64,000 bases of DNA from Spirochaetota bacterium (GTDB taxonomy: Bacteria > Spirochaetota > UBA4802 > UB4802), in assembly GCA_029907515.1 (NCBI GenBank), contig JARYLT010000005.1:7106-71105 (forward strand), in the 5' to 3' direction. The notes under the pieces are model-generated. The model ran no database searches. It was not told the DNA's origin and saw nothing but the letters and a program-made list of their open reading frames with translations. Shown here in pieces: positions 2,435 through 64,000 of the stretch; the first letter of the stretch is position 1; each line of letters starts with the position of its first letter. The position numbers and the translations under genes were made by a program.

Positions 2435-3088
2435 TTAAAAATTTTCCTGTTCAATTATAATTGACAGTGTATCCATAACATCAAAAAAATCATCCCATTC
2501 ATAGTATTCTTTATCTTCAGGCAAAAACTTTTTCAAAAGACCCCTGGCAAACACAATATCAGCATACTTTGCCATCTCAATATCGGTTGGTCCATCGCCT
2601 ATGGCTATTTTACATGTGTGGCGATAGTTACTCATAATGTTAGCCTTTGCCACCAGCTCACCTTCATGCTCATAATCAGAATACACTTTGAGATATTCAC
2701 CGCTAGCATCAATTTTTGCTGCATAGATTGCCGTAACCTTATTTTTCAAATTGCCTAATTTTCGGACCACGCTATCGTACAATCCGCCTGATATGATAAT
2801 AACAGGGATTGATCTGTTATTGCAATATTCCAGAAACTCCTCAAATCCTGGCCGTATTTCTTTATCATCAATATAAGCAAGCATGTCTGAATATAATGAA
2901 GAAGGCAACGATTCAAGTAGCTGTCGCACACCCTGCCTGATGGTAAGCTCCTTATTCCACATCTTTTTGCCAATTTCATCAAATAAACCTGGAGCAAAGG
3001 TTTTACACATACCAACAAATGTCTCAACGGTGGTTATCGTGCCATCAAAATCACAGAATATACAATATGTAGTATTGGTATGTTGCAT
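2435..3088 (-). CDS. HAD-IB family phosphatase (MtnX-like)
   Basis: Motif I 'CDFDGTIT', motif II 'IISGG', motif IV 'IGDGPTD...ADIVFAR'. Confidence 0.85.
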   Translation of the reverse strand: MQHTNTTYCIFCDFDGTITTVETFVGMCKTFAPGLFDEIGKKMWNKELTIRQGVRQLLESLPSSLYSDMLAYIDDKEIRPGFEEFLEYCNNRSIPVIIISGGLYDSVVRKLGNLKNKVTAIYAAKIDASGEYLKVYSDYEHEGELVAKANIMSNYRHTCKIAIGDGPTDIEMAKYADIVFARGLLKKFLPEDKEYYEWDDFFDVMDTLSIIIEQENF

Positions 3089-3116
3089 TATTTGATGGTT
3101 CTTTCGTTACGTTATG

Positions 3117-4703
3117 TTATATAGTATCCAATGAACTATCGCCCCGCGATTTTTCTAAAAGCGCTGTTGCATTATCCAAAATACTTCGGGAAGTGTGTGC
3201 CAGCTGCTGTATCTCATCAACCATCTGGGAAACAACTTCATTCATATGTTCAATGGCCTTTGCGCTTGCTTCAATTGCTGCTTTTTGTTCTTCAGTGCCA
3301 GCACCAATGTTTTTTGCCAGTTCAACGTTCTTTTCCATCTGGTCAATAATATTTTTTATATACTTCTCTTCAACGGTAACACTATCCTGCAGTATTTTAA
3401 TCTTTGAGGAACTTTCGGCCATACGGGCAATCAGATCCTTTAACATTTCAGCAGTTGTCCTGATAACCTCAACACCAGTTTCAGTGGTTTTTGTGCTCTG
3501 TATCAGCACTTTTTCAATATCTTTGATGCTCTCCGATGTTTGAAATGCCAGCTTCCCAATTTCATCCGCAACCACTGCAAATCCCCTGCCATACTCGCCT
3601 GCACGCGCAGCCTCAATGCTGGCGTTGAGTGACAGTAAATTTATCTTATCTGCTATATCAACTATTACGTTTATAGTGTCACCAATTTTCTGACTTTGCT
3701 CCCGTATCTGATTGATGGTTGCCTCAACCTCTTTGATTCTTTCGTTAGCATTGCCTGTACGCGCAACAACATTTTCAACTTCTTGAATTGTTTTATCTAA
3801 ATTTTGCCGCGTTTCGTTTTTTATAACTTTGAACTCACTGACAATCGTTTCCATCATTTCATTACCGCCCACCTGCTCTTCGGAAATGCGTGCTATGCTT
3901 TCCGCTGAGCCCAGCAGTTCTTCCAGTGTTGCTGATATCTCTTCAAATGTTGATGCCTGATTCTGCATCTTTTCGTTAAATTTTATAGTGAGTATATCCT
4001 GCTGTTTTACCTGTTCCAGTAAATCTGCTACCTTTTCCTTTATAGTTTCGTTGAGCTGTCTCTGCATATCCGATTGCTGCTGAATAACAGAAAGTTGTCT
4101 GGTGGAGCGATCATCATATTGCTGTACTACTTTTATATTGCGTGAAGCTAATATTCCAAACACCGCTGTAATCATGATAAAGAAAATCTCGCGAAATATA
4201 ATAAAGCCGTGGACTGGCTTGCCATCAAGTGTTGCATCCCAGTGTATAACCGCTCCATGAGCTATCGCCACCAATAAAAATGCAGTCCATGTTACTACAG
4301 TATAGCCAGTGTAAAAGGCCATAAGCCGTCGGTTGAAGTACAGTTGCAACATAACCAGTAATATAACCATAAGAACTGAACTGTTATACGACTCAAGTGC
4401 AAATGTCCAGTCATACTTTTGCGCATAGGCAAACTTGGCTACTAAAGATATATTGACACTGATAAATCCCAGAATCCATTCAAATACGCCAGTTGCTTTC
4501 AGTAATTTTTTTCTTTTATAAATAACATATGCCAGTATAACACAGATAGTGCTGATTAAGGATAATCGTAAAATTTCCAGAATATCCACTTCCGCCACTA
4601 TCTGGAATATGTGAGCAATTCCAGCCATTATAATAAATATAATAATATATGTTTCACTTGATTTTATTTCCAGAACCTGACGGGCTGTATAGTTTGTTTT
4701 CAT
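3117..4703 (-). CDS. Methyl-accepting chemotaxis protein with multi-TM sensor
   Basis: About 6 N-terminal TM segments; '[33 protein letters not shown]' signalling hairpin. Confidence 0.95.
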
Positions 4704-5342
4704 AGGAACCTCACAAAATGTTATTCAAAGGCTCTCAGTACTTATAGTATATGATGTAGATAGCAACGTCAATAATAATACTTTAGTGACAATAAATTGC
4801 TGTAAAATATCACCATGTTATCAGTACAAATTAGCATAATCATATTTTACATTATATATAATATAGCTCATACCGTCCAATTATCCTTATATTTTAGTTG
4901 AAAAAACTCAAGCTATATTCAGTCCTTTCACACAATGTAATTACTGCTATATTCAAACCAGCGGATATCCTGTATCCTGGCATCCATAATGAAATTTGCA
5001 CAGTGTTATCCTCCTAACTATAATATGGAAATTATATATACCAAATAATGGTCTATTCTTGTAATATCCGGATGTACATTGCCAGAAAACATGTGATATA
5101 CACTCCTGTCGCTTTTGGTGGCGAGGTAATATTACAATTTTTACCTGGAAAAAGTTAAGTAAAAAATACTGAAAATTTTTCATAAAAACATTTGCATTTT
5201 TATGTTACTTGTAACCTGCTATGTGTGAATATTGTTACAAATTATTCTTTATTAAACGTTTACAGTATCAATCTGCATTCCTTGTTCTCTATGGTTAAAA
5301 AAAAGTGAATTACACTATGTGTATTGATCAAGGTAGCTTATC

Positions 5343-6605: not shown

Positions 6606-6607
6606 CC

Positions 6608-7126
6608 ATGAAAGGTTTTGTGCAATGTTATACCGGCAATGGCAAAGGGAAGACAACCGCAGCCATTGGGCTTGCTATCCGAGCGGCTGGCTGGGGCAAG
6701 CATTCAATTATCATTCAATTTTTAAAGGGACAAAAGTCAGGTGAACAAATAGCACTCAAGCGGTTTAACGATTTAATAACAATTGAAACATATGGAAGCA
6801 AAAACTTTTATATCCCTGGTAATAATGATACTGAACATAAAGCATTAGTGCACAAAGCATACAACCGCTGCATAGAAGTGTGTGGCGATAGTTCCTATGA
6901 TATAATCATCTGTGATGAAATACTTACTGCGCTGCATTTCAAACTTATTGCAATTAACGATATTATTGCGTTGACACAAGCCAAACGAATTGACGCTGAA
7001 CTTATTCTGACAGGAAGACAACTACCAAAAAAACTGTATCCATACTGTGACCTCATAACAGAGATGAAAGATATTAAACATTATTATGAAAAGGGAATCA
7101 GTGCACGGAAAGGAATAGAATGGTGA
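6608..7126 (+). CDS. cobO: Cob(I)yrinic acid a,c-diamide adenosyltransferase (CobA/CobO/BtuR)
   Basis: 'YTGNGKGKTTAAIGLAIRA', 'IQFLKG', 'ELILTGR', 'ARKGIEW'. Start is ATG 6608 after GAAGGTG. Confidence 0.92.
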   Translation: MKGFVQCYTGNGKGKTTAAIGLAIRAAGWGKHSIIIQFLKGQKSGEQIALKRFNDLITIETYGSKNFYIPGNNDTEHKALVHKAYNRCIEVCGDSSYDIIICDEILTALHFKLIAINDIIALTQAKRIDAELILTGRQLPKKLYPYCDLITEMKDIKHYYEKGISARKGIEW

Positions 7127-7132
7127 GTATAT

Positions 7133-7168
7133 AATCTAACGGCGAAGTTTAAGCTTCGCCGTTAGATT
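7133..7168. terminator. Hairpin between convergent cobO and acs (bidirectional terminator-like)
   Basis: Perfect 15-bp inverted repeat AATCTAACGGCGAAG / CTTCGCCGTTAGATT. Confidence 0.75.
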
Positions 7169-7178
7169 GGTATTTCGT

Positions 7179-9161: not shown

Positions 9162-9227
9162 CTATTACCTCCGATGTTTATATTGTAATATGCACATTAT
9201 GGGCACCGCTAGAGTGCGGTGTAACCC

Positions 9228-9827: not shown

Positions 9828-10514
9828 TTTAACCTTATTTAACTATTTTAATTATAATAAAATTGTCTTTTATTATCATACTACGGTTATGACCATTTGA
9901 ATAAGCACCTGAAAAAATACAAGCATTTTTTAAATATGAACAAAACCACTGTGTTTTAACAATAATCAAGACAACGGATAGCATAATTTTGTGTATGTTA
10001 TTATTAAGATAACTATCAATTCTTCCTCATTATTGATATATTTATAATAGTTAATGTGTTACACAATGAAACTAAGCATTGAATACCCTTATTTCACTTT
10101 TCTCTACATTATTACATACTGCTCTGCCCCCCTTCTCGTTCCGTGTGCGCTCTGCGATCCCTGCATTCTTTGCAAGATCCATTCTTTTATCTAACATAGA
10201 GTTTGCTGCGAGTACATACTTTTATCACATATTGCTCTGACACCATTATCGGCTCCCATTTCTATACTTTCATTTTCTGCATGAAACACAATATTTGACG
10301 TCGAGGCACAGTGATCGAGGCTATAAGACTTTGACCCTTCATTAAGCAGGCCTACAAGCGTTTGAGTGCCTGCAATTGTTGATTTACTACGGACGCCATC
10401 CTATTGATGCTCTGACCACCACATAGTCTTTTTTACCGATAACTATCGCACAGAATTAAAAAAATTTGATAATTATTGAAAATTTTTGTTGTCACACAGC
10501 AAAAATAATAGTAT

Positions 10515-10537
10515 TTTTATACTAAAATAGTATAAAA
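10515..10537. promoter_or_regulatory. Putative TetR operator
   Basis: Inverted repeat TTTTATACTA-aaa-TAGTATAAAA just upstream of the TetR start codon. Confidence 0.55.
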
Positions 10538-11869: not shown

Positions 11870-12394
11870 ATGGAAAATAAAAGGTTGTTCTTATTGCCAT
11901 TTTTACAGGATATACTTCACAATGAGGATTTTCAATCACTACGGCGTTACACACATCATGGCACAACAACATGCTATCACCACACACTGGAGGTAGCATG
12001 GTTAGTGTATAGATTAGCTGTGGCTTTAAAACTTGATTATGTTGCCGCAACACGCGGGGCATTGTTGCATGATTTCTTTATGTACAACTGGCGCACAGGT
12101 GGCCCACGGCTTCATGGATTCAGGCACCCACGCATTGCACTCAATAACGCATCAAAACATTTTGTGTTGAGTCCAAAGGAAAAAGACAGTATCCTGCGCC
12201 ACATGTGGCCGCTTACGCCACTTCCACCCCGCTATCCTGAATCATGGATAGTAACAGTAGCTGATAAGATAGTATCAACCATGGATTACTTTCGCTTTGT
12301 AAAAAGCAAATTAGTCTTTATGTATAATACCATACACACCTGCATGTGGTTACCATTGCTATCGCGATTCAATCGTCAGAAGCAGTATTCTTAA
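11870..12394 (+). CDS. HD-domain phosphohydrolase
   Basis: 'HH...H..EV', 'GALLHDFF', 'HGFRHP', 'HMWPLT', 'ADK'. Confidence 0.85.
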   Translation: MENKRLFLLPFLQDILHNEDFQSLRRYTHHGTTTCYHHTLEVAWLVYRLAVALKLDYVAATRGALLHDFFMYNWRTGGPRLHGFRHPRIALNNASKHFVLSPKEKDSILRHMWPLTPLPPRYPESWIVTVADKIVSTMDYFRFVKSKLVFMYNTIHTCMWLPLLSRFNRQKQYS

Positions 12395-12490: not shown

Positions 12491-13648
12491 CTATCGCCCC
12501 CTGTTGGCTATTAGGGCAGTAACCGGCAGGCCTCCATGGCTAAAATGTATTTCCTTATCAGCAGGGATGGTACATATGTGTTTAATCTCTGAAGGGATTA
12601 ATACACAAAAACTCCATGCTGGATACCATTCTTTAAAAATTGACCCAAGGCGTTTATATAGTTGTATAGTATCATCAGTATGAATACGCTTCCCATAGGG
12701 TGGATTGATAGTGCATAGAACCTTACCGCCTTCAACTACTTTTTTTTCTTTTAAGAAATCTCCAGTATATGTATGTATTTGGGCACCTGCTTTAATGCTG
12801 TTTTGCTGTGTTATAGCTACCATATCAGGGTTACTGTCTCCAGCTATAATAGTTATATCCTTGTGCTCCTCTGGCTTTTTACGCATAATACCAGTGAATA
12901 CACGCTTACGGAATGATGGCCAGTTCATAAAGGCAAATGTACGATTAGCTCCCGGTGGGATGGCATGAAGCATGCACCACGCCTCAATGGGGAATGTACC
13001 ACTGCCGCACATGGGATCAATGATGATATCGTAGTCATACACATTACATTCATATAATAGTGCTGCAGCCAGTGTTTCTCTTAGTGGTGCATCACTGATA
13101 TGCTGCTTATATCCACGCTTGTATAACGGCTGTCCGCTTGAATCCAAACTTATCATGCATTCGTCACGGTCAAAGCGCACAAATACCTTTTGCACTAAAC
13201 TATCATAGTTTGGTATGGCAAACATGGACAGGCGCTTTTCTATTGCTTTTACTACTTCCTGGCCAATTCTTTCAGTATGATGCAGTTTTGATTTATGCAC
13301 ACTCACATCAACATCAATTGTATATCCCTGTATATATAGTTCCCACGGAAATTCTTTGAGTGTGCGATAGATCTCATTAAAATGATACGCCCTGAAATGA
13401 CACAGCCGCATCAGTATCCGTGTTGCAACCCGTGAATAGTAGTTTGCCGTGTAACAGTGCTCTAACGTTCCCCTGAATGTAACTCCACCTTTTGTAACAG
13501 TACATCCCTGTATACCTGATAGCTCTAGTTCTTTTTTGGCCGTTTCTTCAAACCCAGGCTGTACTACTGCAAAAAACGTATGATGCTTCTTGATTATATG
13601 CTGAAAAATTCGGCGCTGTATGGCTTTTTGTGAAGTGCTGAAATTCAT
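12491..13648 (-). CDS. THUMP-domain rRNA methyltransferase (RlmL-like)
   Basis: 'LYKRGYK..APLRETLAAALL', 'DPMCGSGT', 'NPPYGKR'. Confidence 0.88.
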   Translation of the reverse strand: MNFSTSQKAIQRRIFQHIIKKHHTFFAVVQPGFEETAKKELELSGIQGCTVTKGGVTFRGTLEHCYTANYYSRVATRILMRLCHFRAYHFNEIYRTLKEFPWELYIQGYTIDVDVSVHKSKLHHTERIGQEVVKAIEKRLSMFAIPNYDSLVQKVFVRFDRDECMISLDSSGQPLYKRGYKQHISDAPLRETLAAALLYECNVYDYDIIIDPMCGSGTFPIEAWCMLHAIPPGANRTFAFMNWPSFRKRVFTGIMRKKPEEHKDITIIAGDSNPDMVAITQQNSIKAGAQIHTYTGDFLKEKKVVEGGKVLCTINPPYGKRIHTDDTIQLYKRLGSIFKEWYPAWSFCVLIPSEIKHICTIPADKEIHFSHGGLPVTALIANRGR

Positions 13649-14796: not shown

Positions 14797-16374
14797 TTAC
14801 TCCAGTCCTGTAACCTGTATAGATTCAGGATATTCTACAGCAAAGTGTATTGTTAATTCTTTTTTCTGATTGGGGGAAAGCTGTACCTGCCATGTTGCTT
14901 TTCCTTCGTTATCAATGACAGCACCAATACTGTTTTTGTTAACAAGAGTAACCGTTATCTTTTCATTTTGCGAAACAGGAATGGCATCCTGGACGGTAAC
15001 GGTAACATCACGCTTTTTACCGTTGGCAAGTTTTATGGAATATACATATTCAATGCGTTTTGTTTTACTCACCAGCCCTTTATATTCGGTCTTTTTGCTT
15101 AAAAGTTTTCTCTCAACCATAAGGCTTTCATCAACACCCAGTGCCACTGTTATTAAATCTTTTGGTACGTACAGTTTATTAACATTGAAAGAATTGACAA
15201 ATTTGCCATCCAGGTATACATTCAAGTTCCCACCCTGCATGGGGAAATCAAAAGGATTGGGGAATTCACCTTCAAGCATAACATACGGAAGCACTTTAGG
15301 AACCGTTGCATAGCGCACGGTACAATCTGTTGTTGCCTTTGCCACAGGTATTTTATATGCATTGCCATCGGATGGTATTGTCTTTGTACCCTTTATTTGA
15401 AATGAAAATGCAATACGCTCTTCCTGCATTACAGGCATTTCTTCAGCTTCCTGCGGTGCTTCAGCAGCGTCCTGACTTCTGAGTGCCATACTTTTGGGTG
15501 ATTCCTTATAATAATGCGATGGCTGGTAAACATCTAAATACCATGGGTTAAGCACAGGCTTCTGGGTTGCAACAAACGGCTTTGAGGTCGATAGTTCTAA
15601 AGAAACATCCTTCCAGTCTTCACCAGTCCTTTGATACACACGGGCATTACATACCACTTCAACCGTTTGTGCTTCAGTATTTGCACGGGCTTCATATTCC
15701 ATTTTCCAACCTGCATCCCCTGTAATATACTGAATCATCACTATTGCACTATCCTGACCGGTATGCACAACAACAAGCTGTAATGATTTTGTTGCCTCAC
15801 CAGTATTGAGAAGCGACAGCTCTTTTTCTAAGCGTTCCTTTTCCTCTTTAAGTTTTTGCAATGCCTGTTGCAACGTGGCTATCTTTTTATAGCTCTGGCT
15901 ACTATGTTGTTCAATTAACTGCAGTATCGATTGCATCTGCGCTGCTGTCATGGCAACCGTAAATGGCGATGTGCTGCCTTTTTTTATATATTCAAGAACG
16001 GTGTTCAACGCCTGTATATCATTTTGTTTTGCATTAATCTCGTTATTGATTGATTCAAGTTTTTCTTTGAGTGCGTTAATGCGCTGCACATCACCTTTTT
16101 TAAGATAGGTTGTTTGCACAGAAACATCACGCACCATAGCACCTTTTGTAACCACCTGAACTGATTCATTAACCATTGATGCAGGCAGTCCCTCTATGGT
16201 AATCACATTTTCACCTTTATGCAAGTTTACATTAGCTTCTTTTTTAACCAGTGCACTGTCATAATATACAATAACGTTACTAATTTCAGGTTTAACTGTT
16301 TGTGCATAAATTACAGTAATGCTTGTAACAACTATCGCCAATGTAAATATTGTTTTTTTCATACAGTTTTTCAT
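14797..16374 (-). CDS. DUF4140/DUF4139 (MuiA-like) exported protein
   Basis: Signal peptide, coiled coil, 'VYQRTGEDWKDVSLELSTSKP', 'TIPSDG'. Start chosen after GGAAGG. Confidence 0.8.
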   Translation of the reverse strand: MKNCMKKTIFTLAIVVTSITVIYAQTVKPEISNVIVYYDSALVKKEANVNLHKGENVITIEGLPASMVNESVQVVTKGAMVRDVSVQTTYLKKGDVQRINALKEKLESINNEINAKQNDIQALNTVLEYIKKGSTSPFTVAMTAAQMQSILQLIEQHSSQSYKKIATLQQALQKLKEEKERLEKELSLLNTGEATKSLQLVVVHTGQDSAIVMIQYITGDAGWKMEYEARANTEAQTVEVVCNARVYQRTGEDWKDVSLELSTSKPFVATQKPVLNPWYLDVYQPSHYYKESPKSMALRSQDAAEAPQEAEEMPVMQEERIAFSFQIKGTKTIPSDGNAYKIPVAKATTDCTVRYATVPKVLPYVMLEGEFPNPFDFPMQGGNLNVYLDGKFVNSFNVNKLYVPKDLITVALGVDESLMVERKLLSKKTEYKGLVSKTKRIEYVYSIKLANGKKRDVTVTVQDAIPVSQNEKITVTLVNKNSIGAVIDNEGKATWQVQLSPNQKKELTIHFAVEYPESIQVTGLE

Positions 16375-25830: not shown

Positions 25831-25922
25831 GTATTGGCGATAGTAACCGGGGATAAATTACTTCTTGACAACAAGCTCTGTTGTGGCACCATCGTTGTAT
25901 TATTTTTGCCATGAGGTGCCCC

Positions 25923-46691: not shown

Positions 46692-47945
46692 TGGCAACTC
46701 AACGGTAAACTCAGCATATTGTCCCAACACTGAGTTTGCATAAATTCTGCCACTGTGCAGGTACACAATATTCCATGACACAAAAAGCCCAATGCCTGAC
46801 CCTTTGCGGGCAAGCAGTTCATCAGTTTCAATGCGCGAAAACCGCTTGAACAGTTTATGTTTCTCTGATTCAGGAAACCCCGGGCCAGTATTCCACACGC
46901 TGATTTTACATATAGTGCCTTCTTTTTTTACGGTTATACGCACAATCCCGTTATCACTATTATACTTGATTGCATTGCTTAAGAGGTTATGCATCACAAT
47001 CTTCATGGCGTCGGGATCGCACTTTAGCTGTACATCCTCATAATCTTTTTCAACGGTTATATGTTTTGCATCAGCCTGGGGCTGCACAATGGCAAGTGCA
47101 GGTTCAATAATATCATGTGCGATAGTTACTGTTGATTTGCGTACTGGCATTGAACCAGTCTCAAGGCGGGCTAAGTTCAAATACTCATTTACTATCGTTA
47201 ACAGATATTCTGCCTGCGCAAGAATTCGATCAATGGTGTTTGTGCAATGCTCAGGGATTTCTCCAAAGTATCCCTGCTTTAGTGTGGTACCTAATGTTAC
47301 TATAGATGATAAAGGGCTTTTTAGTTCATGAGTTACAAATGATAGCATCTCCATGTACGCGTTGATTGCCTGGGTTAACTGCTCAATGCGGTATGCTTTT
47401 TCAACAGCCTGGCTCAATCGCTCAGCAATAGCCTGATGCAGTGCTATCTCACGTGAACTATACATATTCTTTTTACGGGAACTCCTGAACAATACACCTA
47501 CAATGCGCCCTTCCACATATAGTGGGCAGGTCATGCTTGACATAACACCTTCTTTCAAAAGCAGGCGCGTTGATTCACTTGATGGATTATTTTTGTAATA
47601 CTCCTCTAAATCATTAATAATACGCGGTGTTTCATTGCTGAATATTGTTTCAAGAGAACTCCCCTTAAGGTCAGCAGTATATCCTTTATCCAAATAAAGA
47701 GGGCTGTATGAGGCTACAACGTGGTACAGCGTTAAGCGCTTGCCATCATCAGAAAATGCAATACCAATTCTATCACAGGGCATGATATGTTGTGTTTCTT
47801 TAAATAAATATTCTATGATGTCAATCAGTGACTGCCCTGAAGCTATTTTCTGATTAATGGTATCTAGTGTTTTAATTTCTTCTGGTGTTAAAACAACTTC
47901 TGCACCTTTACCCTGTACATAGGAAATTGTATCACGTTTGTCCAT
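46683..47945 (-). CDS. Cytoplasmic GAF sensor histidine kinase
   Basis: GAF domain, 'HELKSPL', 'NLLSNAIKY', 'NTGPG', 'GSGIGL'. Confidence 0.92.
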   Translation of the reverse strand: MDKRDTISYVQGKGAEVVLTPEEIKTLDTINQKIASGQSLIDIIEYLFKETQHIMPCDRIGIAFSDDGKRLTLYHVVASYSPLYLDKGYTADLKGSSLETIFSNETPRIINDLEEYYKNNPSSESTRLLLKEGVMSSMTCPLYVEGRIVGVLFRSSRKKNMYSSREIALHQAIAERLSQAVEKAYRIEQLTQAINAYMEMLSFVTHELKSPLSSIVTLGTTLKQGYFGEIPEHCTNTIDRILAQAEYLLTIVNEYLNLARLETGSMPVRKSTVTIAHDIIEPALAIVQPQADAKHITVEKDYEDVQLKCDPDAMKIVMHNLLSNAIKYNSDNGIVRITVKKEGTICKISVWNTGPGFPESEKHKLFKRFSRIETDELLARKGSGIGLFVSWNIVYLHSGRIYANSVLGQYAEFTVELPLE

Positions 47946-48111
47946 GCATCATTCCTCATTACATTTACCATGAACAAGTTTACAGTATCCATACAATTAT
48001 GCAAGGTTTTTATGTAGTATCATTTTCATTGTATTTGTAATGCTAACTACCAATATCTGTAATATTAAAAAAGGTATATTAAGGAATATCATAAATGGAA
48101 GCTTGAAAGGT

Positions 48112-48280
48112 TTCACCGTGCATGGATGCACGGTGAATTGGGATGCGGGCGATGACCTGAACGGATGCTATTCCGCAGCCCGCCGTGGAAAGATTCATCT
48201 TTATCAATAAGGCACGCCGCCGCTTGAGGCGCGCTTTGGGGGTTGGTAAGGGGGCATTTAGCGCATAAATGCCCCCTTAC
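48112..48280. repeat. GC-rich multi-hairpin intergenic element (ncRNA or REP/MITE-like)
   Basis: Perfect 12-bp IR at 48112-48137, GCGGGC/GCCCGC stem at 48145-48183, perfect 15-bp IR at 48246-48280, all in AT-rich flanks. Confidence 0.55.
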
Positions 48281-48487
48281 AAGAATATACAAGATTGAAT
48301 TGTTTGAAAAAATAGCAGGAAACAAGATGTTTTTTACTGAACAGAAGGTATACAAGAGCAAGTCGGTATAAACTAAGTAGTTAGAAAATATAAAAGTGTA
48401 AGCAAGAATGAAACTTATTACGGAAAGTGTTACATATTAAAGAAAACCCTTACACCAGTAACTATCGCACAAAAACTACTCAATTAT

Positions 48488-49674: not shown

Positions 49675-50535
49675 TTATGTGTAATCGTAAAACCCTTTTC
49701 CGGTTTTGCGCCCCAACCAGCCTGATTCAACATAGCGCCTGAGGAGCGGACATGGCCTGTATTTTGAATCCTTAAAACCATCATACAGGGTTTCCATAAT
49801 AGCTAAACATGTATCAAGCCCAATAAGGTCCGCCAATGCCAGTGGCCCCATAGGGTGGTTCATTCCTAATTTCATAACTGTATCTATGGACTCACGAGTT
49901 CCTACGCCTTCGTACAGGCTGTATATGGCCTCATTAATCATTGGCATGAGTATACGGTTGGAAATGAATCCAGGATAATCATGAGCCTCAGCCGGTGTCT
50001 TCCCTAATTTGAGCGATAGTTCCCAGGTTACATCAAATGTTTCCTGCGATGTGGGTAGTGCCCGTATAATCTCAACAAGCTTCATGACAGGCACTGGATT
50101 CATAAAATGCATCCCAATAACCTTATCAGGACGTTTTGTTGCTGCGGCAATTCGACCTATGGGAATTGAAGAAGTATTGGTAGCACATATTACCTGTGGC
50201 CTGCAGATGGTGTCTAAATCCTTAAATATTGTTAACTTTATATCCTGATTTTCGGTGGCAGCTTCCACAACAAAATCAGCATCTGCAAGCTCATGGAACC
50301 TACACGTTGCTCTGACTCTCTCCATTATGCGTTGCTTTTCATCCTGCGTTATTTTCCCTTTTGCAACATCTTTGGAAAGCACCCCGTTTATATACGTTAC
50401 ACCTTTTAAAGCCAATGCTTCTGTTAAATCATAGAGAATAACAGTGAATCCGCTTACTGCTGCAACACAGACAATCCCTGAGCCCATCTGTCCTGCACCT
50501 ATAACACCTATTGTATTAATGGTATCTGCTTTCAT
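49675..50535 (-). CDS. hbd: 3-hydroxybutyryl-CoA dehydrogenase
   Basis: 'GAGQMGSG', 'VEAATE', 'NTSSI', 'GMHFMNPVPVM', 'HPMGPL'. Confidence 0.92.
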   Translation of the reverse strand: MKADTINTIGVIGAGQMGSGIVCVAAVSGFTVILYDLTEALALKGVTYINGVLSKDVAKGKITQDEKQRIMERVRATCRFHELADADFVVEAATENQDIKLTIFKDLDTICRPQVICATNTSSIPIGRIAAATKRPDKVIGMHFMNPVPVMKLVEIIRALPTSQETFDVTWELSLKLGKTPAEAHDYPGFISNRILMPMINEAIYSLYEGVGTRESIDTVMKLGMNHPMGPLALADLIGLDTCLAIMETLYDGFKDSKYRPCPLLRRYVESGWLGRKTGKGFYDYT

Positions 50536-50558: not shown

Positions 50559-51728
50559 CTATCGTTTCACAATTAATGCAACTGCTTCGCCGCCACCCAA
50601 ACACAGCGATGCCAAACCTATACGTTTATTCTGGCGTATCATTTCATGAAGCAATGTTACCAGAACACGCGCTCCACTTGCACCAATGGGATGCCCCAGT
50701 GCAACGCTTCCTCCATTGACATTGACCTTTAAACTATCAAGACCCAGTTCTTTCAGCACACCAACTGTTGATCCACTGAATGCTTCGTTGATCTCATAAA
50801 GGTCTACATCCTGCAATGATATCCCTTCTTTTTTAAGGCATTTAGGGATGGCAAGTATTGGCGCCATCAGGACATATTTCATATCAATGCCAGCTGAAGC
50901 CTGTGCACCAATCGTTGCCATAATGCGGCACCCCAACTCTTCGGCCTTTTTCTGTGACATCACCACCAGCGCTGCAGCACCGTCACTGATAATGGAAGCA
51001 TTGCCCGCAGTGGTAACACCATCTTTTTTAAAAGCAGGCTTCATTGTTGCCAGAATTTCATACGGTGTTGGCTTTGGGCATTCATCGGTATCAAAAATTA
51101 TTTCCTTTTGTTTATGGGCGATAGTTACCGGAACTATCTCCTCCTTAAATTTCCCTGCCTGGATAGCATGTAGAGTTCTTTCATATGAAAGCGCAGCATA
51201 CCTGTCCTGCTCTTCCCTGCTCACATTATACTTTTCACAGCACAATTCGTTTGAGATACCCATATGAAAATCGTTGACCACATCCCATAATCCATCATGA
51301 ACCATATGGTCTTTGAGTTGACCATCACCCATGCGGTACCCAAACCGTGCTTTTTCCAGATAGTAGGGGGCCATACTCATATTTTCCATGCCACCAGCTA
51401 CCACTACATCAGCATCGCCACACTGTATTGCCTGTGCTGCAAGCATAACTGCCTTTAAACCAGAGCCACATACTTTATTTATTGTTAAACATTCCACTTC
51501 CCAGGGAAGATGTCCCTTTATTGCAGCCTGCCGTGCCGGATTTTGCCCATAACCACAGGGAAGCACCTGCCCCATAATAACTTCATTGACATCTTCTTTT
51601 GAAATTCCTGCGCGATTAATGGCTTCTTCAATGACAATGGCTCCCAGTTGCGTTGCGGGTATGGAAGACAAGGAACCGTTAAAATTACCCAGAGCAGTTC
51701 TTACAGCACTGACAATAACAGCTTTCAT
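50559..51728 (-). CDS. Acetyl-CoA C-acetyltransferase (thiolase)
   Basis: 'NKVCGSG', 'NEAF', 'GHPIGASG', 'CLGGG'. Confidence 0.95.
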   Translation of the reverse strand: MKAVIVSAVRTALGNFNGSLSSIPATQLGAIVIEEAINRAGISKEDVNEVIMGQVLPCGYGQNPARQAAIKGHLPWEVECLTINKVCGSGLKAVMLAAQAIQCGDADVVVAGGMENMSMAPYYLEKARFGYRMGDGQLKDHMVHDGLWDVVNDFHMGISNELCCEKYNVSREEQDRYAALSYERTLHAIQAGKFKEEIVPVTIAHKQKEIIFDTDECPKPTPYEILATMKPAFKKDGVTTAGNASIISDGAAALVVMSQKKAEELGCRIMATIGAQASAGIDMKYVLMAPILAIPKCLKKEGISLQDVDLYEINEAFSGSTVGVLKELGLDSLKVNVNGGSVALGHPIGASGARVLVTLLHEMIRQNKRIGLASLCLGGGEAVALIVKR

Positions 51729-52726: not shown

Positions 52727-53464
52727 ATGATGGCAAAAAAGTATAAAGCAGTTACTTGTATTGTTTTGGTACATATAGTGTTTATATTAATATCATGTAC
52801 ATCTGTTGAGTTTGTTAAAACTGGTGAAGAATATCCTGCACTCAATGAAACTGATGAAGTTCAGGTTTTGCTTACCATAGATAAAAACCAATATGATGAG
52901 ATAGGCATCGCTGATATTGGCGGAGTATCATTGCCCGTACGTATTGAAAAAGCCAAACAGATTGCCCGCAGCAAAGGCGGTAATGTGATTGTCCCAGTGA
53001 CAATGTGTACTGAAGAAGCCCAGAAGAGAATGCGCAGCGGGTATATTATTCAGAGCTTTTATATACTCAAAACAAAAACGGAAGCTATCGCCCCCAAAGA
53101 GGCAATTGAATCAAAACAGATAACTCCACCAGTTGAAGAAGAATTTATACCCGAAAAGCAAGCTGCAACATTTCAACAACTGTTACAACACTATCCGTCA
53201 TTGCAGGGACAGCCATTTACAAATACTATGGTACCACTGAGATTTTACAAAATTCCTCCATCACTTCTTGTATATGGACTGTCAGACTATAAACTTTGTT
53301 TAATGCAGTTTGACACTGATAATACTGTACTGGTATTTATTCCCAAAGAAAAAATCACTGTTATTAAAAACTCTATTGATACGAGGAGTACTATAGCTAT
53401 TGATTTTACACCTTTAGGTGTTTACAAAGGAAAATATCCCGTTTTAAAAATGCTGTCAGAATAA
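52727..53464 (+). CDS. Hypothetical lipoprotein
   Basis: AAGGAG RBS; lipobox 'ILIS-C'; 'AKQIARSKGGNVI' resembles a YbjQ/DUF4156-like fold. Confidence 0.7.
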   Translation: MMAKKYKAVTCIVLVHIVFILISCTSVEFVKTGEEYPALNETDEVQVLLTIDKNQYDEIGIADIGGVSLPVRIEKAKQIARSKGGNVIVPVTMCTEEAQKRMRSGYIIQSFYILKTKTEAIAPKEAIESKQITPPVEEEFIPEKQAATFQQLLQHYPSLQGQPFTNTMVPLRFYKIPPSLLVYGLSDYKLCLMQFDTDNTVLVFIPKEKITVIKNSIDTRSTIAIDFTPLGVYKGKYPVLKMLSE

Positions 53465-53483: not shown

Positions 53484-56400
53484 ATGGTACAGAAAGTTTT
53501 TACCCAGAGTAGCCTTTGCAGATTTACTCTCAATGATGAGGAAAAATTATCCGATGAAAGGGTAAAAGAAGAAATACGCAAAGCTTTTCAAGAGCTCAGA
53601 GCATTCCCCTTTGTTGTAAATTCAGGTATTATCGATTCATTAAAAAAAGGTGCCGACCCCTCATCGTTAAAAGATTTATTTGTAGCTATCCGAAATGATA
53701 TATTTGCTGCAATTACCGATAGTCCCCAGGCAAAGGAAAAAATAATATCCGACATCAGATTGCAGGAGAGAATTTTAAATGCAATTATCACAATCCACAG
53801 TGCTATAGCAAAGGGCGATTTTACTTCAATAATAAACCGCCGTTTTGTGCTTATCAAGGAACGACCTGCCTGGCCAACACTATATTACATTTCACCTCAA
53901 AGTGCCGTACTATCCCATGTTGGGCAGGGTCCACAGTGGACTGAAATTCCTACAATTTATCTGGGTCTTAATATATTCAATGTGCTTGCCCTTGATAAAG
54001 ACCAAAAATTTGACAAAGCATTTTACTGGTTATTACGGGTTGAAGAGCGTGCGATAGAAACTGGATATTCGCATATTGAAGTGTACCCGCCTCATGTATC
54101 ACGTGCTCTCAATGAATTGCTTGATGAAGTCATACGCATTGCAACTATCTCAGAAGTTGAATTCAAAGAAATCCCTGCCCGTAAAAAAATACGTGCTTTT
54201 ACAATCCGTAACCGTGAAAGCTTTTTAAAGATGCTCAATGCCCGTCGTGATGATGGAAACTTTGATTTTGAAAAAAACTTAAAAGCAATACGATCACTGG
54301 AAAGGCTGGCACGCCGTTACAAAAAAGGCTACAACTTCAATTCGCTGCGTGAAATTGTACGTCTTCTGGTGGCCGCATCAGGCCATGATATCCATGAAAT
54401 ACGAAATAACGCCAACATTTTACTGGAACGCATATTTGCACCAAAGGAGTTTGATGCACCGCTGGCTACTACTTTTGTCAACTGTGCTGCTGGTAATATT
54501 CATACTTTTGAATTTTCCATCCCGGAAGAAGGGAACTACTTTGTACGTATATTTTACAATGCAGGCACAAACCCTTACCCTCTGGAGCAGGACATTGCAT
54601 ATAGCGACATTGATCTGGCCTTTGATGAAACAAAAGGAGTCTATACTGCACACTATACATTCAACGAATTAGGCCACTATGATTTCCTTGTCTACAGAAA
54701 ACGAAAAAAACGCTCTCAGTGGGTAGCATACGAAGGTTGCAGTGGTAGGATTAACGTTATCCCTGATGTGCGCGGTGAAATTGTTCTTGAAATATTTCCC
54801 GATATTCACGGGCATACTCGTATCTACTGGATGGATGAAGAACATCCGGGATTGGTGTACAATGAGCATGGAGAAGTAATTCGTTTAGGCCGTTTTAGCG
54901 ACATCACTGCTCATCTAGAGGATTTAAAAGAGCGCTATCACATCACTGCTCTGTACCTTTTGGGTGTCCAGAAGCGTGGTACCAACCGTGAAGACTGGGC
55001 ACCTGAAGCTACATCACCTTCACCATTTTCACCAGTCAGTTTAGTTGAAATTGAAGACTTTTTAGGCGGTGAAAACGAATTTCGTGAGCTTGTATCCAAA
55101 GCTCATGCAATGGATATAAAAATTATTATTGATGTGGTACCCCACCTTAATCGCCGTAGCACTGAGCTTCCGGATGAGTACGCTGTCAAATGTTACGACG
55201 ACAGTGGCAATCTGGTTATTCGTGCTTCAACTGATGGTCGTTACGGAAGCTGGAATGACGGCAAACTGTTAAACTATCGCAAACTTGAAGTATGGGAATG
55301 GCTGATCAACAGTGTTGTTACATTAATTGACAAATATGATATTGACGGCATTCGCTTTGATTCAGCTCATGCTGTTCCCATCATGATGAAGAAGAATAAC
55401 TATCCGTTTATATGGGGGCAGTATCGTTCACTGGAATCCCTTGTTGAAGGTGAAATTATTGTCAATGACCGCGAAGATGGGCATTTTATCACAACAGGTT
55501 ATTTTGACAGTGCCTGCAGGGATCAGATAGCTATCCCTTTCCATCATCTTCTGATGTGCCGCATTGCACAAAAGCTGAAGGAAAAGAATAAAACATTTTT
55601 TGTGCATTTAGCCGAATGTTACTGGGGTCATGAGCGCTATCTTACCCGCAGCGGAATTATTCCCTATAATTCGGCCCTTTTTAAGATATGTGAAGGGATC
55701 ATCCATGGCACCACTGATGTCCGTGAAGTATACCATTTTTACGACAACTATCTCCCATACGCTTTACCACCGGGTACTGAGCTTTTAGGTATACTGGGTA
55801 ATCATGACGAACGGCGCGCACTCAATACGTTTGGGCACCGGGGACTGCGGGCTGCTATTGGACTTACTATATTTATGAATAACATCATTATGGATTATGA
55901 GGGAAGTGCCGAAGGCGAAAGCTGGAAAGTATTTCTGGATAACATCTATGTAAACTGGAATCAATTTGAGTATGCTGCTCACCGCAGCCTGGAGTCATTT
56001 TACCGACAATGGTATCGTTTCCACCGCATCAATAAAGGCAAGGGATATTTGATATGGGCTAATAACACTCAGGTTGCAGCATCCATTAAATTTACCGAAC
56101 ATACTATATGGATTGGCATTTTTAATTTTGCCGATAGCTCTCAGAATGTGGCATTGCAGTTTGACAACCCGCGATTGCCCATTGCTGATGATACATACTT
56201 TAAAGTAGTTGATCCTGTATATTCACCTATCACAAAGCATTACAGTTACTTTACAGGGAAAGAGCTTAAGGCTTCAAAAATTTATTCGGTTGTTTCATAC
56301 ACTGACAGGATCAAGCTTTTAAAATTAGAACCGGTTAGCGATGTTGCACCACTGTACAGTGAATTCCTGCGCGATTCACTTTTCAGATTATATTCAATCA

Positions 56401-58325: not shown

Positions 58326-58439
58326 AATAAAAGAGCCTTCCACAAACACCATCAGTACAAGTGGGAGGCCCTGGAGTGTAAAATGATCTGGTAATTTAAT
58401 CGGAAGGGTAATGGTAAAACTTGAATGTTTTATTGTGTT

Positions 58440-59012
58440 ATGAAAAAAAAATATATTATTGCAGTAATTTCATTATGGATACTATCCTGCGCCTCAAATG
58501 ATAAAGCAGAGTTGGGGAATATTGTTGGCTCTATCAATGGACAGCCGGTTATACCCTATGCTGCTAACAAACTCTACATTTCACCATTTACGAATCAGAC
58601 CGGTATCCCGGGCTATGAAGAAAAGATAAAACAGCGTATAATGGAAAAAATAATAACAGGTGGCAGGTTAGCGATAGCTCCAGTACAGGCTGATAGCGAT
58701 GTAATATTGACAGGCACCATTCAGTCATTTCAGGTGCAGCCAATTGTGATTGACAGTGCAGGAATAATTAAAAAAAAGCGATTATTACTAATTACTGTGA
58801 TAAGTTTAATCAATGCACAGACAGGAAATTACATTTTTCGCAGTATCACCGTACAGGCATTTAAAGAGTTTTCGGACATTGAAGCACCTGTTACACCAAT
58901 TACCATTGCTCAGGATGAGGTGGAACAGGTTTTAGCTTCACGGATTGCTTTACAGGTTGAAACAGGCTGGTACACTTCTCTTAAAACAGGAGTGGAAAAA
59001 GGAAGGAAATGA
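58440..59012 (+). CDS. lptE: LptE-like LPS assembly lipoprotein
   Basis: Lipobox ILS-C, 'YISPFTNQT', 'DVILTGTI'; directly upstream of holA. Confidence 0.7.
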   Translation: MKKKYIIAVISLWILSCASNDKAELGNIVGSINGQPVIPYAANKLYISPFTNQTGIPGYEEKIKQRIMEKIITGGRLAIAPVQADSDVILTGTIQSFQVQPIVIDSAGIIKKKRLLLITVISLINAQTGNYIFRSITVQAFKEFSDIEAPVTPITIAQDEVEQVLASRIALQVETGWYTSLKTGVEKGRK

Positions 59013-59013
59013 T

Positions 59014-60021: not shown

Positions 60022-60034
60022 TGGCACTGTATCT

Positions 60035-62758: not shown

Positions 62759-62764
62759 AAAAAC

Positions 62765-63298
62765 TCAATATTCTCCACCAGGGAAATTATCCTTAAAAAA
62801 GCGTATTTTCTTTTTCTGGGTTTCAACTTCCTGCTTATTGATTGTACCTTTTTCCAAAGCTATATCCAGTAATTTTACTGCTGTATCGTCCTCATCTTTT
62901 TTTGCTTTATCTTCATCATCCTTCTGTAACGTTGCTATCTTTCTATCAATATCATCCTGCGTTAACATCGAAAATTCCTGTTCTTCCAGTTCTACTACTG
63001 TGTCTTTAATTTTATTTTCCTTTGGCTCTTTCTTTTTGGAGGTTTTCTTTTTTGGTTCAGCAATTAAAGCTTCACTAACTTCTTCCTCTTCTGGTTGCAA
63101 ATTGGCTGGTGGATTTGCTATTTTTAACTCTAAAAGTTTTATGCGTTCACCCAATAAAATGTTTATCTGCTTTTCAATGGTTATAAATATAGGCTGAGTA
63201 AATGATTTATTCCTTTGCAAAGACTTTTCCAATTTTCTGAGTTCACGAATATCCTGGTCTATCATTTCAATTCTTTTAAGCACATGGATAACTTTCAT
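62765..63298 (-). CDS. Hypothetical charged/coiled-coil protein
   Basis: GAGGT RBS; helical N-terminus and Lys/Glu/Asp-rich C-terminus. Confidence 0.7.
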   Translation of the reverse strand: MKVIHVLKRIEMIDQDIRELRKLEKSLQRNKSFTQPIFITIEKQINILLGERIKLLELKIANPPANLQPEEEEVSEALIAEPKKKTSKKKEPKENKIKDTVVELEEQEFSMLTQDDIDRKIATLQKDDEDKAKKDEDDTAVKLLDIALEKGTINKQEVETQKKKIRFFKDNFPGGEY

Positions 63299-63469
63299 AA
63301 TCAAACCTCAAAAGTAATGTTAAGTTATTTAGTCTGTAACACAATCACCGGCAACACCATTGTGGTTGTTATACGCTGTGCATTAAAAAGTTTATAATAC
63401 ACCGCTAAAGTAATGTACATTAATTATAACATTAATGTCAATAAACTTTTAATACTGGAAAAGATTTTA

Positions 63470-64000
63470 CTAATTAAAATAAACAGTCTGGTCATCATCC
63501 ACTGCAAACTGCAACCCGCAATCAGGGCATTTAAATTTACCTGGTGAACTTATCCGTACCATTGTTCTACAATCAGGACATTCAATCACCAATGGATGTT
63601 CAAACACCATGGAGGTCATGGCAACTGGTTTTGTTTCCGTATATGTTTCTTTTTTTGGGCTTTCTTTTGATGACACCGGTTTTTCAATAATTTTTACGCC
63701 TGTATCTTGTACTGCTTCCATTGCTTCATCCAATGAATTATACCGTTTTACCGGAAGTGCAATGATATCAATCAATGTCATTATCTCCTTATTACAATAG
63801 CAGAGCACCACCACACCGCCACCAGATTCAACCACCCTTTGTGCATACATTAATGCGCCAAACCCTGTTGAACTGATATAGTTGAGCTTTGAACAATCAA
63901 TGATTATAGCATTGAATTCCTTTTGAAGTGTTGCAATATACTCTTCAAACTGCACTGCATTGGTATGATCAATGTACCCCTCAACAGTAACTATCGCTAC
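63470..64000 (-). CDS. STAS anti-anti-sigma domain + C-terminal zinc ribbon (5' end beyond the window)
   Basis: Frame is open to the edge (VAIVTVEGYIDHTNA...); 'IDCSKLNYISSTGFGAL'; CPDC-x-CPDC. Confidence 0.85.
   Translation of the reverse strand, partial: VAIVTVEGYIDHTNAVQFEEYIATLQKEFNAIIIDCSKLNYISSTGFGALMYAQRVVESGGGVVVLCYCNKEIMTLIDIIALPVKRYNSLDEAMEAVQDTGVKIIEKPVSSKESPKKETYTETKPVAMTSMVFEHPLVIECPDCRTMVRISSPGKFKCPDCGLQFAVDDDQTVYFN

Follow-up and report, generated by a model that had tools for sequence, protein, structure and literature searches.

A short asymmetric genome word in an uncultured spirochete genus resembles bacterial DNA uptake tags

Introduction

The DNA uptake sequences (DUS) of Neisseriaceae occur in dialects and are described as being read by the minor pilin ComP (PMC3630211, PMC3868556). 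The USS of Pasteurellaceae has been described as distorting codon and peptide usage (PMC2817400), and the report cited here presents its receptor only as predicted (PMC12616744). A third comparison is offered by HIP1 (GCGATCGC) of cyanobacteria, which is reported to be 15- to 300-fold enriched within and between ORFs and to be conserved at orthologous positions beyond expectation; these reports describe it as long without known function and as recently proposed to be an uptake-related tag (PMC5861425, PMC13756078).

Here we analyze a stretch of 64,000 nt (the window, meaning the whole stretch at its full length) from a spirochete genome of 3.49 Mb in 193 contigs that is 98.6% complete. The members of this genus are known solely as metagenome-assembled genomes. 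An original prediction, made from the letters of the window, held that a dispersed word resembling a DNA uptake sequence recurs in it.

Results

The word under study is the 9-mer AACTATCGC, with CTATCGC as its 7-mer core and GKAACTATCGC as its 11-mer form. In the window the 11-mer occurs 12 times compared with 0.01 expected from 100 dinucleotide shuffles, and the recount reproduced all coordinates and strands of the 12 copies that had been predicted. The 9-mer is present 16 times (0.24 in shuffles) with the nine plus and seven minus orientations already claimed, and the core 33 times (3.31 in shuffles, with a shuffle maximum of 8). The chance expectations given earlier, 0.5 for the 9-mer and 5 for the 7-mer, were slightly too high, while the GC content judged by eye to be 37% agrees with the 36.97% measured genome-wide. 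The variants AGCTATCGC and TACTATCGC are also present, although their positions had been given approximately and were in some cases up to 20 bp off. Their cores start at 4262, 21096, 23900, 30268, 40529, 53085 and 58671 (AGCTATCGC) and at 12491, 25837 and 41938 (TACTATCGC). The 33 cores of the window are as follows.

2621 to 2627, minus: core CTATCGC in the full word GTAACTATCGCC; within an ORF, sense
3136 to 3142, plus: core, TGAACTATCGCC; antisense in an ORF
4262 to 4268, plus: core, TGAGCTATCGCC; variant with G at position -1
6885 to 6891, minus: core, GGAACTATCGCC
10443 to 10449, plus: core, ATAACTATCGCA; intergenic
12359 to 12365, plus: core only, ATTGCTATCGCG
12491 to 12497, plus: core, GGTACTATCGCC
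13364 to 13370, minus: core only, AGATCTATCGCA
16332 to 16338, plus: core, ACAACTATCGCC
21096 to 21102, plus: core, TGAGCTATCGCC
23900 to 23906, minus: core, AGAGCTATCGCC
25650 to 25656, plus: core, GGAACTATCGCT
25837 to 25843, minus: core, GTTACTATCGCC; intergenic
26807 to 26813, plus: core only, TCCGCTATCGCA
29507 to 29513, plus: core, GGAACTATCGCC
30114 to 30120, minus: core, ACGACTATCGCC
30268 to 30274, minus: core, TGAGCTATCGCT
33668 to 33674, plus: core, TACACTATCGCC
36904 to 36910, plus: core, GGAACTATCGCC; identical in G005, G003 and G008
38229 to 38235, minus: core, GGAACTATCGCC; TGAGCTATCGCC at the same place in G008 (dialect)
40529 to 40535, plus: core, ACAGCTATCGCA; two-substitution gain in this species, AGCTTTC[C/G]C in the other four species
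41905 to 41911, plus: core, AGGACTATCGCA
41938 to 41944, plus: core, GTTACTATCGCT
42964 to 42970, minus: core, GTAACTATCGCC; retained in G005, G008 and G001
47119 to 47125, minus: core, GTAACTATCGCA; retained in G005, G003, G002 and G008
48462 to 48468, plus: core, GTAACTATCGCA; intergenic
50013 to 50019, minus: core, GGAACTATCGCT; GAGCTATCTC at this place in G008
51118 to 51124, minus: core, GTAACTATCGCC; identical in 6 of 6 species compared
53085 to 53091, plus: core, GAAGCTATCGCC
54051 to 54057, minus: core only, GTTTCTATCGCA
55274 to 55280, plus: core, TAAACTATCGCA
58671 to 58677, minus: core, GGAGCTATCGCT; intergenic
63991 to 63997, plus: core, GTAACTATCGCT

The genome-wide logo gives the consensus with flanks TTnnCAGkA(A/G)CTATCGCCcA, or in bracket form TTnnCAG[T/G]A[A/G]CTATCGCC[C]A, in which the core CTATC(G)C is almost invariant. 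Weaker preferences, partly A/T-rich, flank a core of about 9 bp. The word is asymmetric and hence no palindrome.

Throughout the genome we found 813 copies of AACTATCGC (400 plus, 413 minus) compared with about 22 under an order-3 Markov model, and 1657 copies of the core compared with 222 expected. Two 12-mers of the word reach 183 and 126 copies where about 0.3 and 0.2 are expected, and the commonest 14-mer of the genome lies within the word. Variants with one mismatch in the CTATC core occur 0-2 times each, which is the chance level. The copies are not confined to the window, nor are they parts of one longer repeat, because similarity between their flanks stops beyond about 20 bp.

According to a crude self-made ORF set, 340 copies of the 9-mer are sense and 283 antisense to ORFs and 190 lie outside, so that 77% fall within ORFs. 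All reading frames are used save the antisense frame that gives TAG. Synonymous-codon shuffles left 33±5 copies of the 9-mer in ORFs compared with 623 observed; two further counts in ORFs were 287±18 and 8.4±3 in the shuffles compared with 1410 and 359 observed. The tripeptide NYR is encoded as AAC-TAT-CGC in 71 of 140 cases compared with 3.5% by codon usage, peptides compatible with the word are over-used 1.2-1.75 times, and the logo is identical for coding and intergenic sites. The use of many frames and of intergenic DNA, first noticed in the window, is thus borne out genome-wide. Neither the Markov nor the codon-shuffled null explains the count, in agreement with the earlier claim that selection or drive acts on the DNA and not on the protein.

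The 9-mer is present in 423-950 copies in all nine genomes of the genus, which represent nine species, compared with 8-14 copies in all four genomes of the sister genus and 9-43 in 18 other genomes of the order. Moreover, RCTATCGCC reaches 566-799 copies in 8 of 8 genus genomes, and no enrichment above the control level was seen in 393 other genomes of the phylum. A search for dialects among relatives had been proposed, and position -1 does vary: A and G account for 70 and 23% in G000 and for 43 and 46% in G008. The word is a genuine genus-specific genome signature, formed and maintained at the level of the DNA.

In a comparison of two species with 80% identity, CTATCGC ranks first in conservation among 3253 7-mers. 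The orthologous core is retained at 102 of 163 sites, compared with 24% for the median 7-mer, and the identity per site falls from 0.88-0.95 in the core to about 0.81 in the flanks. Differences at orthologous sites are substitutions, with indels touching 9 of 162 and 8 of 171 sites, and one gain of a site via two substitutions is documented. New copies originate in situ through point substitutions, in any readable frame, in genes or spacers and on either strand, and no other 7-mer is retained nearly as well thereafter.

A prophage is devoid of the word, with 0 copies in 30.5 kb compared with about 14 expected from the genome density. Species-specific segments are sparse in it as well (0.17 per kb in DNA unshared with G008 compared with 0.47 per kb in shared DNA), which is the depletion in acquired DNA that was to be checked. 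A cytoplasmic binding site or a biased repair process would likewise lead to conserved sites and to their depletion in foreign DNA. Besides, two further stretches are motif-free, one a housekeeping region and the other a polysaccharide/ATP-synthase region.

Among the competence genes whose search had been suggested, ComEC (Competence domain only) and DprA are present, and both occur order-wide. A secretin, pseudopilins and a type II secretion system (T2SS) were found. A single T2SSE-type ATPase was detected in this 98.6%-complete genome, the GspE of a canonical GspC-D-E-F-G...K-L cluster, and hence no PilB/PilT type IV pilus was found. Likewise, ComP_DUS had no match and VirB4 or a type IV secretion system was not found in the same genome, nor was a canonical ComEA, as no HHH_3/ComEA match exceeded the Pfam cut-off. 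Genomes throughout the order encode a porin-like beta-barrel protein of the outer membrane that carries a fused ComEA-like (HhH)2 domain; the best match of its (HhH)2 fold is 8dss_B, with a probability of 0.98 but E = 0.81. ComEC, DprA, the secretin with the pseudopilins and the beta-barrel protein would be compatible with DNA uptake. The sister genus, which is motif-free, likewise has ComEC, DprA, the beta-barrel protein and an orphan methyltransferase. We found no competence-related gene or receptor that sets the genus apart from this sister genus and, short of a full gene-content comparison, no genus-specific DNA-binding protein.

Discussion

Judged by analogy, the spirochete word behaves like DUS and USS, or like HIP1. 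As in Neisseriaceae, it is short and non-palindromic and occurs hundreds of times per genome, in both orientations, within genes and spacers; it is common to related species, shows dialect-like variation in its flank and drops to background level in mobile DNA as well as in the genomes of the sister genus. Unlike the DUS, it has another sequence and belongs to another phylum (Spirochaetota), in a genome in which neither a ComP_DUS domain nor type IV pilus ATPases were found. With the USS it shares a core of about 9 bp with weaker A/T-rich flank preferences, the use of several reading frames and the distortion of codon and peptide usage. It differs from the USS in the word itself, in that a competence regulon and pilus were not found, and in its inner-core variants with one mismatch, which stay at the chance level; this cut-off is probably sharper than that of the USS. 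Pairs of copies less than 50 bp apart are convergent in 22 and divergent in 8 cases, and the close inverted pairs are not terminators, since ORFs contain 15 of the 22 convergent ones, which is unlike DUS and USS. Convergent spacers also have the lowest density of the word among intergenic regions. In the suggested checks, namely Markov and codon-shuffled nulls, a logo with flanks, polarity, relatives with their dialects and acquired DNA, the original inference holds for a dispersed, non-palindromic and unpolarised word that is maintained at the DNA level, and both conditions named as refuting it fail. Its reading as an uptake signal stays an analogy, and the alternative offered in the same prediction, a chromosomal site bound by a protein, is open to the same extent.

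Our tentative reading is that the word tags self-DNA for recognition by a protein, with DNA uptake as its likeliest role. One sequence-specific DNA-binding protein would read the word and thereby mark DNA as the genus's own, and binding and import by the cells would favour DNA of relatives that carries the motif. Recombination of the imported fragments would then spread and restore copies by molecular drive, as in the DUS of Neisseriaceae and the USS of Pasteurellaceae. Import could proceed via ComEC and DprA, with an outer-membrane step that would need to be non-canonical, such as a T2SS-type pseudopilus or the order-wide beta-barrel with its ComEA-like (HhH)2 domain.

A chromosomal binding or modification site comparable to HIP1, occupied by an abundant nucleoid-associated protein or by a methyltransferase together with a reader, is a somewhat unlikely but serious alternative. 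The word would then serve chromosome organisation, repair or the marking of self-DNA under ordinary selection and not under uptake drive. The sharp footprint of the best-conserved 7-mer speaks for such a site, as does the chance level of one-mismatch core variants, which strict protein recognition predicts, and no canonical uptake machine was found in the genome searched. Moreover, the density in intergenic regions peaks in divergent, promoter-bearing spacers (0.74 per kb) and is lowest in convergent ones (0.47 per kb). Like HIP1, the word is enriched in genes and spacers and its orthologous sites are conserved above background; in the cited work the conservation of HIP1 is read as selection and a nucleoid role is proposed (PMC5861425). 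Unlike the spirochete word, which is asymmetric and confined to a single genus, HIP1 is described as a phylum-wide palindrome that includes the target sites of two orphan methyltransferases.

In all nine species, housekeeping genes do surround an orphan N6-adenine methyltransferase whose specificity domain is TaqI-like. The distribution of this enzyme does not track the word: the sister-genus copy has 47-48% identity, other families carry the gene as well, and between the two genera few parts of the enzyme are as well conserved as the specificity domain (0.51-0.67 identity). As the sister genus is motif-free and this domain is conserved, the enzyme, which is not genus-specific, does not account for a word found in one genus alone. 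A C5 methyltransferase was detected in one of nine genus genomes, which argues against a modification site as well as against a biased process, and the lack of a genus-specific DNA-binding protein in our search weighs against such a site. At short range, the gaps between copies follow a Poisson process (CV 0.96) and hence give no sign of selection for even coverage, a point against the uptake reading as well. Finally, few precedents are known among nucleoid proteins for hundreds of strict sites within genes whose upkeep is costly for codon and peptide usage.

It is improbable that the word is a functionless by-product of genus-specific biased mutation, repair or gene conversion, for example of a mismatch-processing enzyme that converts near-matches. 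The creation and alteration of sites by point substitution in place would fit such a process, and so would the scarcity of one-off core variants (through back-conversion), the absence of the word from foreign DNA of short residence and its restriction to one genus, for which one lineage-specific enzyme could suffice. Against this, no repair bias is known to give a 40- to 700-fold enrichment of a 9-12-mer. The process would need a specificity of about 12 bp on both strands and therefore it, too, calls for a recognition protein of its own.

A polar signal for recombination or segregation that RecBCD/AddAB or FtsK would recognise is very hard to reconcile with the data. Like Chi and KOPS/AIMS, which are read by DNA-processing proteins, the word is short and over-represented on the chromosome, and a length of 7-9 bp with about one copy per 2-4 kb is in the range of Chi- or KOPS-like signals. 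Against such a signal, its enrichment is far above that of Chi. Unlike these signals, which are co-oriented with replication, it has one of the lowest polarities among the octamers of the genome. The G-rich and C-rich strands carry 510 and 492 copies (z = 0.57), which is the 14th percentile of 6101 octamers, whereas the most polar words exceed z = 10. The counts are even in bins of positive skew (284 plus, 281 minus) and of negative skew (211 plus, 225 minus), and no flip of orientation across the skew switch was seen on a 400-kb stretch of G008. These results contradict a Chi- or KOPS-like signal and agree with the unpolarised word of the original prediction.

Apart from the high copy number, nothing suggests that the copies derive from a miniature mobile element or a longer family of repeats, or that they are artefacts of the assembly or of codon usage, and these readings, which the data contradict, are the least credible: unlike in REP/MITE-type repeats, the information lies within about 20 bp, 77% of copies are in ORFs and orthologous sites differ by substitutions and not insertions, while codon shuffles fall short of the count and orthologous sites recur in independent assemblies of nine species.

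The genus thus carries a short word in many hundreds of copies per genome which resembles the self-recognition tags that serve other bacteria in DNA uptake. Taken at its strongest, the reading as an uptake tag would make this the first DNA uptake sequence outside Proteobacteria, in a naturally transformable spirochete genus that selects its own DNA with a 12-bp tag and without a type IV pilus, where DNA may be captured at the outer membrane via the beta-barrel-ComEA-like protein or a T2SS pseudopilus; this is conceivable, if rather unlikely. If true, uptake without a type IV pilus would represent a new kind of sequence-specific uptake machine.

Results

Abundance and target of the word

The original prediction described a dispersed word resembling a DNA uptake sequence, and all of its counts were reproduced in the window: 12 copies of the 11-mer GKAACTATCGC, 16 of the 9-mer AACTATCGC (9 plus, 7 minus) and 33 of the 7-mer core CTATCGC. 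Dinucleotide-preserving shuffles predict 0.01, 0.24 and 3.3 copies, respectively. The window corresponds to C149:7106-71105 of an assembly of 3.49 Mb (193 contigs, 37.0% GC, 98.6% complete), in which the 9-mer occurs 813 times (400 plus, 413 minus) and the 7-mer 1657 times, compared with about 22 and 222 copies expected under an order-3 Markov model. The two 11-mers are present in 276 and 210 copies (about 1 expected for each) and the 12-mers GTAACTATCGCC and GGAACTATCGCC in 183 and 126 copies (about 0.3 and 0.2 expected). Moreover, the commonest 14-mer of the genome, CAGTAACTATCGCC with 88 copies, contains the word.

For a codon null, synonymous codons were permuted within each gene, preserving the protein and the codon usage of that gene (20 permutations), using a crude, self-made set of 2982 ORFs of at least 100 codons that covers 87.5% of the genome. 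Within these ORFs we observed the 9-mer 623 times versus 33±5 under permutation, the 7-mer 1410 times versus 287±18 and the 11-mers 359 times versus 8.4±3. Neither null accounts for the genome-wide frequency of the word, and a codon or Markov model is thus ruled out as its source.

The occurrence in many frames and between genes that had been noticed in the window also holds for the genome, as the 9-mer lies in sense orientation 340 times, in antisense 283 times and outside ORFs 190 times in this crude set, and is found in every frame that makes no stop. In peptides compatible with the word, its codons are 8-33 times as frequent as predicted from codon usage; NYR, for instance, is spelt AAC-TAT-CGC in 71 of 140 cases versus 3.5% expected. 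The same peptides are themselves over-represented 1.2-1.75-fold. The target of the word is DNA and not protein, and the codon and peptide excesses mean that the word bends codon choice and, mildly, the proteome. One account of uptake sequences describes a similar bending (PMC2817400).

Anatomy of the word

When all copies were aligned, information was confined to about -9 to +11 around the core, with the consensus TTnnCAG[T/G]A[A/G]CTATCGCC[C]A and then an A-rich stretch. Since the flanks are unrelated beyond this consensus, the word is neither part of a longer repeat family nor a miniature mobile element. The logo is identical for sites within and outside ORFs. One-mismatch variants of the inner CTATC occur at chance level (0-2 copies each), whereas substitutions at the edges are tolerated, namely T>G at -3 (126 copies), A>T at -2 (53), C>A/T at +7 (56/36) and G>T/A at +5 (21/13). 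The GTAAC form, which holds a stop triplet, dominates outside ORFs with 112 of its 276 copies located there; the GGAAC form is the one used within genes, with 15 of 210 copies outside ORFs.

Polarity and spacing

The word had been described as unpolarised, and this was borne out. Bins of 10 kb with positive GC skew hold 284 plus and 281 minus copies and those with negative skew 211 and 225, although skew in this genome tracks gene strand (rho 0.74) and such bins are an imperfect replichore proxy. With respect to the G-rich strand, orientation is 510 versus 492 (z = 0.57), which places the word at the 14th percentile among 6101 octamers, the most polar of which reach z > 10. In a relative (G008), word orientation does not flip across a contiguous 400 kb with a clear skew switch. 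Replichore polarity was therefore rejected, and there is no support for interpreting the word as a Chi- or KOPS-like signal. Even spacing was likewise rejected because the gaps between sites fit a Poisson process (CV 0.96). Among inverted pairs lying close together, convergent ones (22) outnumber divergent ones (8), yet 15 of the 22 convergent pairs lie inside ORFs, and they are therefore not terminators.

Distribution and dialect

The enrichment was recovered in related genomes. All nine species-level genomes of the genus carry 423-950 copies of the 9-mer, with 26-44 copies of the word read backwards as a control; 8-14 copies were counted in four genomes of the sister genus and 9-43 in 18 further genomes of the order. 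The phylum was scanned for RCTATCGCC in 401 genomes of 153 genera. The eight genus members among them hold 566-799 copies versus 27-44 for controls, and all of the remaining 393 genomes are at control level. Two relatives, G007 and G008, have fewer copies of AACTATCGC but not of RCTATCGCC. At position -1, A and G account for 43% and 46% of G008 sites compared with 70% and 23% in the window's own genome (G000), and GAGCTATCGC is the top 10-mer of G008. This shift is a dialect. A replacement dialect in the sister genus was rejected, as 400 kb of its genome G009 (43.8% GC) held no dominant word other than GGGGTCAGAGCC. Among the 14-mer matches listed, the recurrent public records that align to G000 at 72-89% identity are metagenome-assembled genomes, labelled by their submitters as Leptospira or Spirochaetota/Spirochaetia.

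Evolution of sites and depletion in foreign DNA

We compared sites over 365 kb of G008 aligned to G000 at 80% identity. Of 163 core sites, 102 were kept at the orthologous position, which ranks the core first among the 3253 7-mers that occur at least 40 times (median retention 24%, 99th percentile 46%). Identity per site is 0.88-0.95 over the seven core bases versus about 0.81 in the flanks. Sites present in one species only differ by 1-4 substitutions, and indels affect 9 of the 162 and 8 of the 171 sites. In the window, site 51118 is the same in six species, site 40529 was gained in the window's species via two substitutions and site 38229 shows a dialect change in G008. The word thus arises by point mutation and is retained better than any other.

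ORFs carry 0.46 sites per kb, compared with 0.74 in divergent, 0.57 in tandem and 0.47 in convergent spacers. Depletion in acquired DNA was confirmed. Two of the four longest motif-free stretches are prophage, with 0 copies in 30.5 kb:

G000:C164, whole 17,960 bp: prophage head module (portal, head protease, major head protein), 0 copies of the 7-mer core
G000:C150:9333-21855: prophage tail module (sheath, tape measure, tail fibre), 0 copies of the 7-mer core

Another is a polysaccharide island with an ATP synthase. DNA of G008 with no counterpart in G000 has 0.17 sites per kb versus 0.47 in shared DNA.

The fourth of the longest motif-free stretches consists of 19.4 kb of housekeeping genes (G000:C116:2493-21888; pyruvate phosphate dikinase, beta-oxidation, LeuRS) with 0 core copies. 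This is unexpected in native DNA and might reflect recent replacement or a region under unusual constraint.

Other repeats

A second over-represented word, (G)GGGTCAGAGC(C), occurs genome-wide in 157 copies versus about 1.3 expected and shows no flank homology (for example near 5537 and 5635 of G000:C130 and near 1340 and 1477 of C167). It is clustered, with 34 of 89 neighbour distances below 200 bp, and roughly half of the copies fall outside ORFs. It is found across the order but patchily, with 110-208 copies in the genus, 61-110 in its sister and 0-3 in two families. On these grounds GGGGTCAGAGC was rejected as an instance of the same phenomenon. It is tandem with a 19-bp period in contig C22 of another genome (G016) and may be operator-like or a small repeat element. 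One repeat with a period of about 65 bp forms CRISPR-like arrays of 34, 10 and 14 copies at G000:C93, C101 and C187:47-893. In the window, a dispersed repeat of about 180 bp with a G+C-rich hairpin at its end (48107-48287) lies within a gene-free stretch of 1.7 kb. G000 carries 3-5 copies (C106, C182, C180, C129), and many matches of 74-90 bp occur in the relatives G001 and G008. The repeat has no Rfam match and is not a tRNA; neither the Rfam nor the tRNA scan of the window gave a hit.

Candidate machinery

The competence genes expected for DNA uptake were found in part. G000 encodes ComEC, consisting of the Competence domain only, and DprA with a paralogue. This ComEC profile is described as dominant in Spirochaetes in one survey (PMC6299819). 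ComEC (G000:C129:13440-15365 and relatives) has 641-646 residues in the genus and 653-800 in most of the remaining order, with one of 622. A type IV pilus, ComP and canonical ComEA were not found: in this 98.6% complete genome there was no match to ComP_DUS, no VirB4, no second pilus ATPase and no HHH_3 above Pfam's cut-off. The sole secretin/ATPase/pilin set is a canonical type II secretion system:

G000:C168: GspC-D-E-F-G and pseudopilins
G000:C146: continuation with pseudopilin, GspK and GspL

Weak HHH_3 matches were GspK, a radical-SAM protein and a beta-barrel protein:

G000:C17:3530-4768 (locus L196:1501-2739): beta-barrel-HhH protein, 413 residues

The model of the latter comprises a signal sequence and a 14-stranded outer-membrane barrel together with an (HhH)2 module and a helical tail. 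The modelled barrel matches OmpG (E = 1.4e-8) as well as PorV- and FadL-like chains. By fold, the module best matches ComEA 8dss_B (probability 0.98 but E = 0.81), and its target TM-score against 2duy is 0.74. Of 31 order genomes, 29 encode the protein, which evolves quickly (identities of 49-84% inside the genus and 30-33% against the sister genus), and its neighbours have no Pfam match. It is a candidate outer-membrane DNA receptor, and we propose no more than that. ComEC and DprA occur throughout the order, and these, the DprA paralogue and the beta-barrel-HhH protein were rejected as genus discriminators because all are present in both genera.

The search for methyltransferases did yield a conserved orphan enzyme, but one that does not track the word:

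G000:C160:61306-63060 (locus L181:9306-11063): solitary N6A DNA methyltransferase with N6_Mtase, Eco57I and TaqI_C domains

It is set among housekeeping genes (hypA, a MoCF-type gene and rsmG), is syntenic in all nine species and has no adjoining nuclease. It is also found in the sister genus and in several of the order's families; between the two genera, the specificity domain is well conserved. A C5 methyltransferase occurs in only one of nine genus genomes, and a methyltransferase link was therefore rejected. Upstream of the N6A enzyme, at a distance of 4 kb, is a small permuted N6_N4 methyltransferase (L181:4458-5201).

Discussion

The word is a real, genus-specific and unpolarised word of 9-12 bp that has been imposed on coding sequences and is absent from foreign DNA. 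Its features are collectively the hallmarks of the DUS and USS uptake words; HIP1 of cyanobacteria shares them, except that our word is not a palindrome. These hallmarks imply one sequence-specific reader. We tentatively rank self-recognition in DNA uptake first as the process that this putative reader would serve, because it is the only mechanism known to us that yields asymmetric, unpolarised and frame-blind words. The main weaknesses of the uptake reading are that type IV pilus, ComP and ComEA are missing and that no competence gene separates the genus from its sister.

A cytoplasmic binding or modification site ranks second and is somewhat less likely; the orphan N6A enzyme is conserved across the genus but also shared with the sister genus. 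HIP1 has recently been put forward as an uptake-related tag (PMC13756078; 10.1101/2024.09.10.611283), a proposal that brings the two leading readings closer together. A functionless bias of repair or conversion, placed third, is improbable.

A literature search for the motif strings in the articles themselves returned unrelated papers only and no described genomic word. A search combining uptake sequences with Leptospira or Spirochaetes likewise turned up no account of the word, nor of any sequence-specific uptake within the phylum. To our knowledge, hyperabundant DNA-level words are known from very few lineages, namely Neisseriaceae, Pasteurellaceae and cyanobacteria. Each of these cases has informed how bacteria tell their own from foreign DNA. 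The present case is a clean one, as the word is restricted to one genus, a motif-free sister genus is available for comparison and dialects are already visible. Therefore, the questions it raises, namely what reads the word and whether Spirochaetota take up DNA sequence-selectively, are directly testable. On the practical side, the word offers a sensitive marker for binning and for spotting foreign DNA in these genomes, and it may possibly be useful for making members of the genus transformable.
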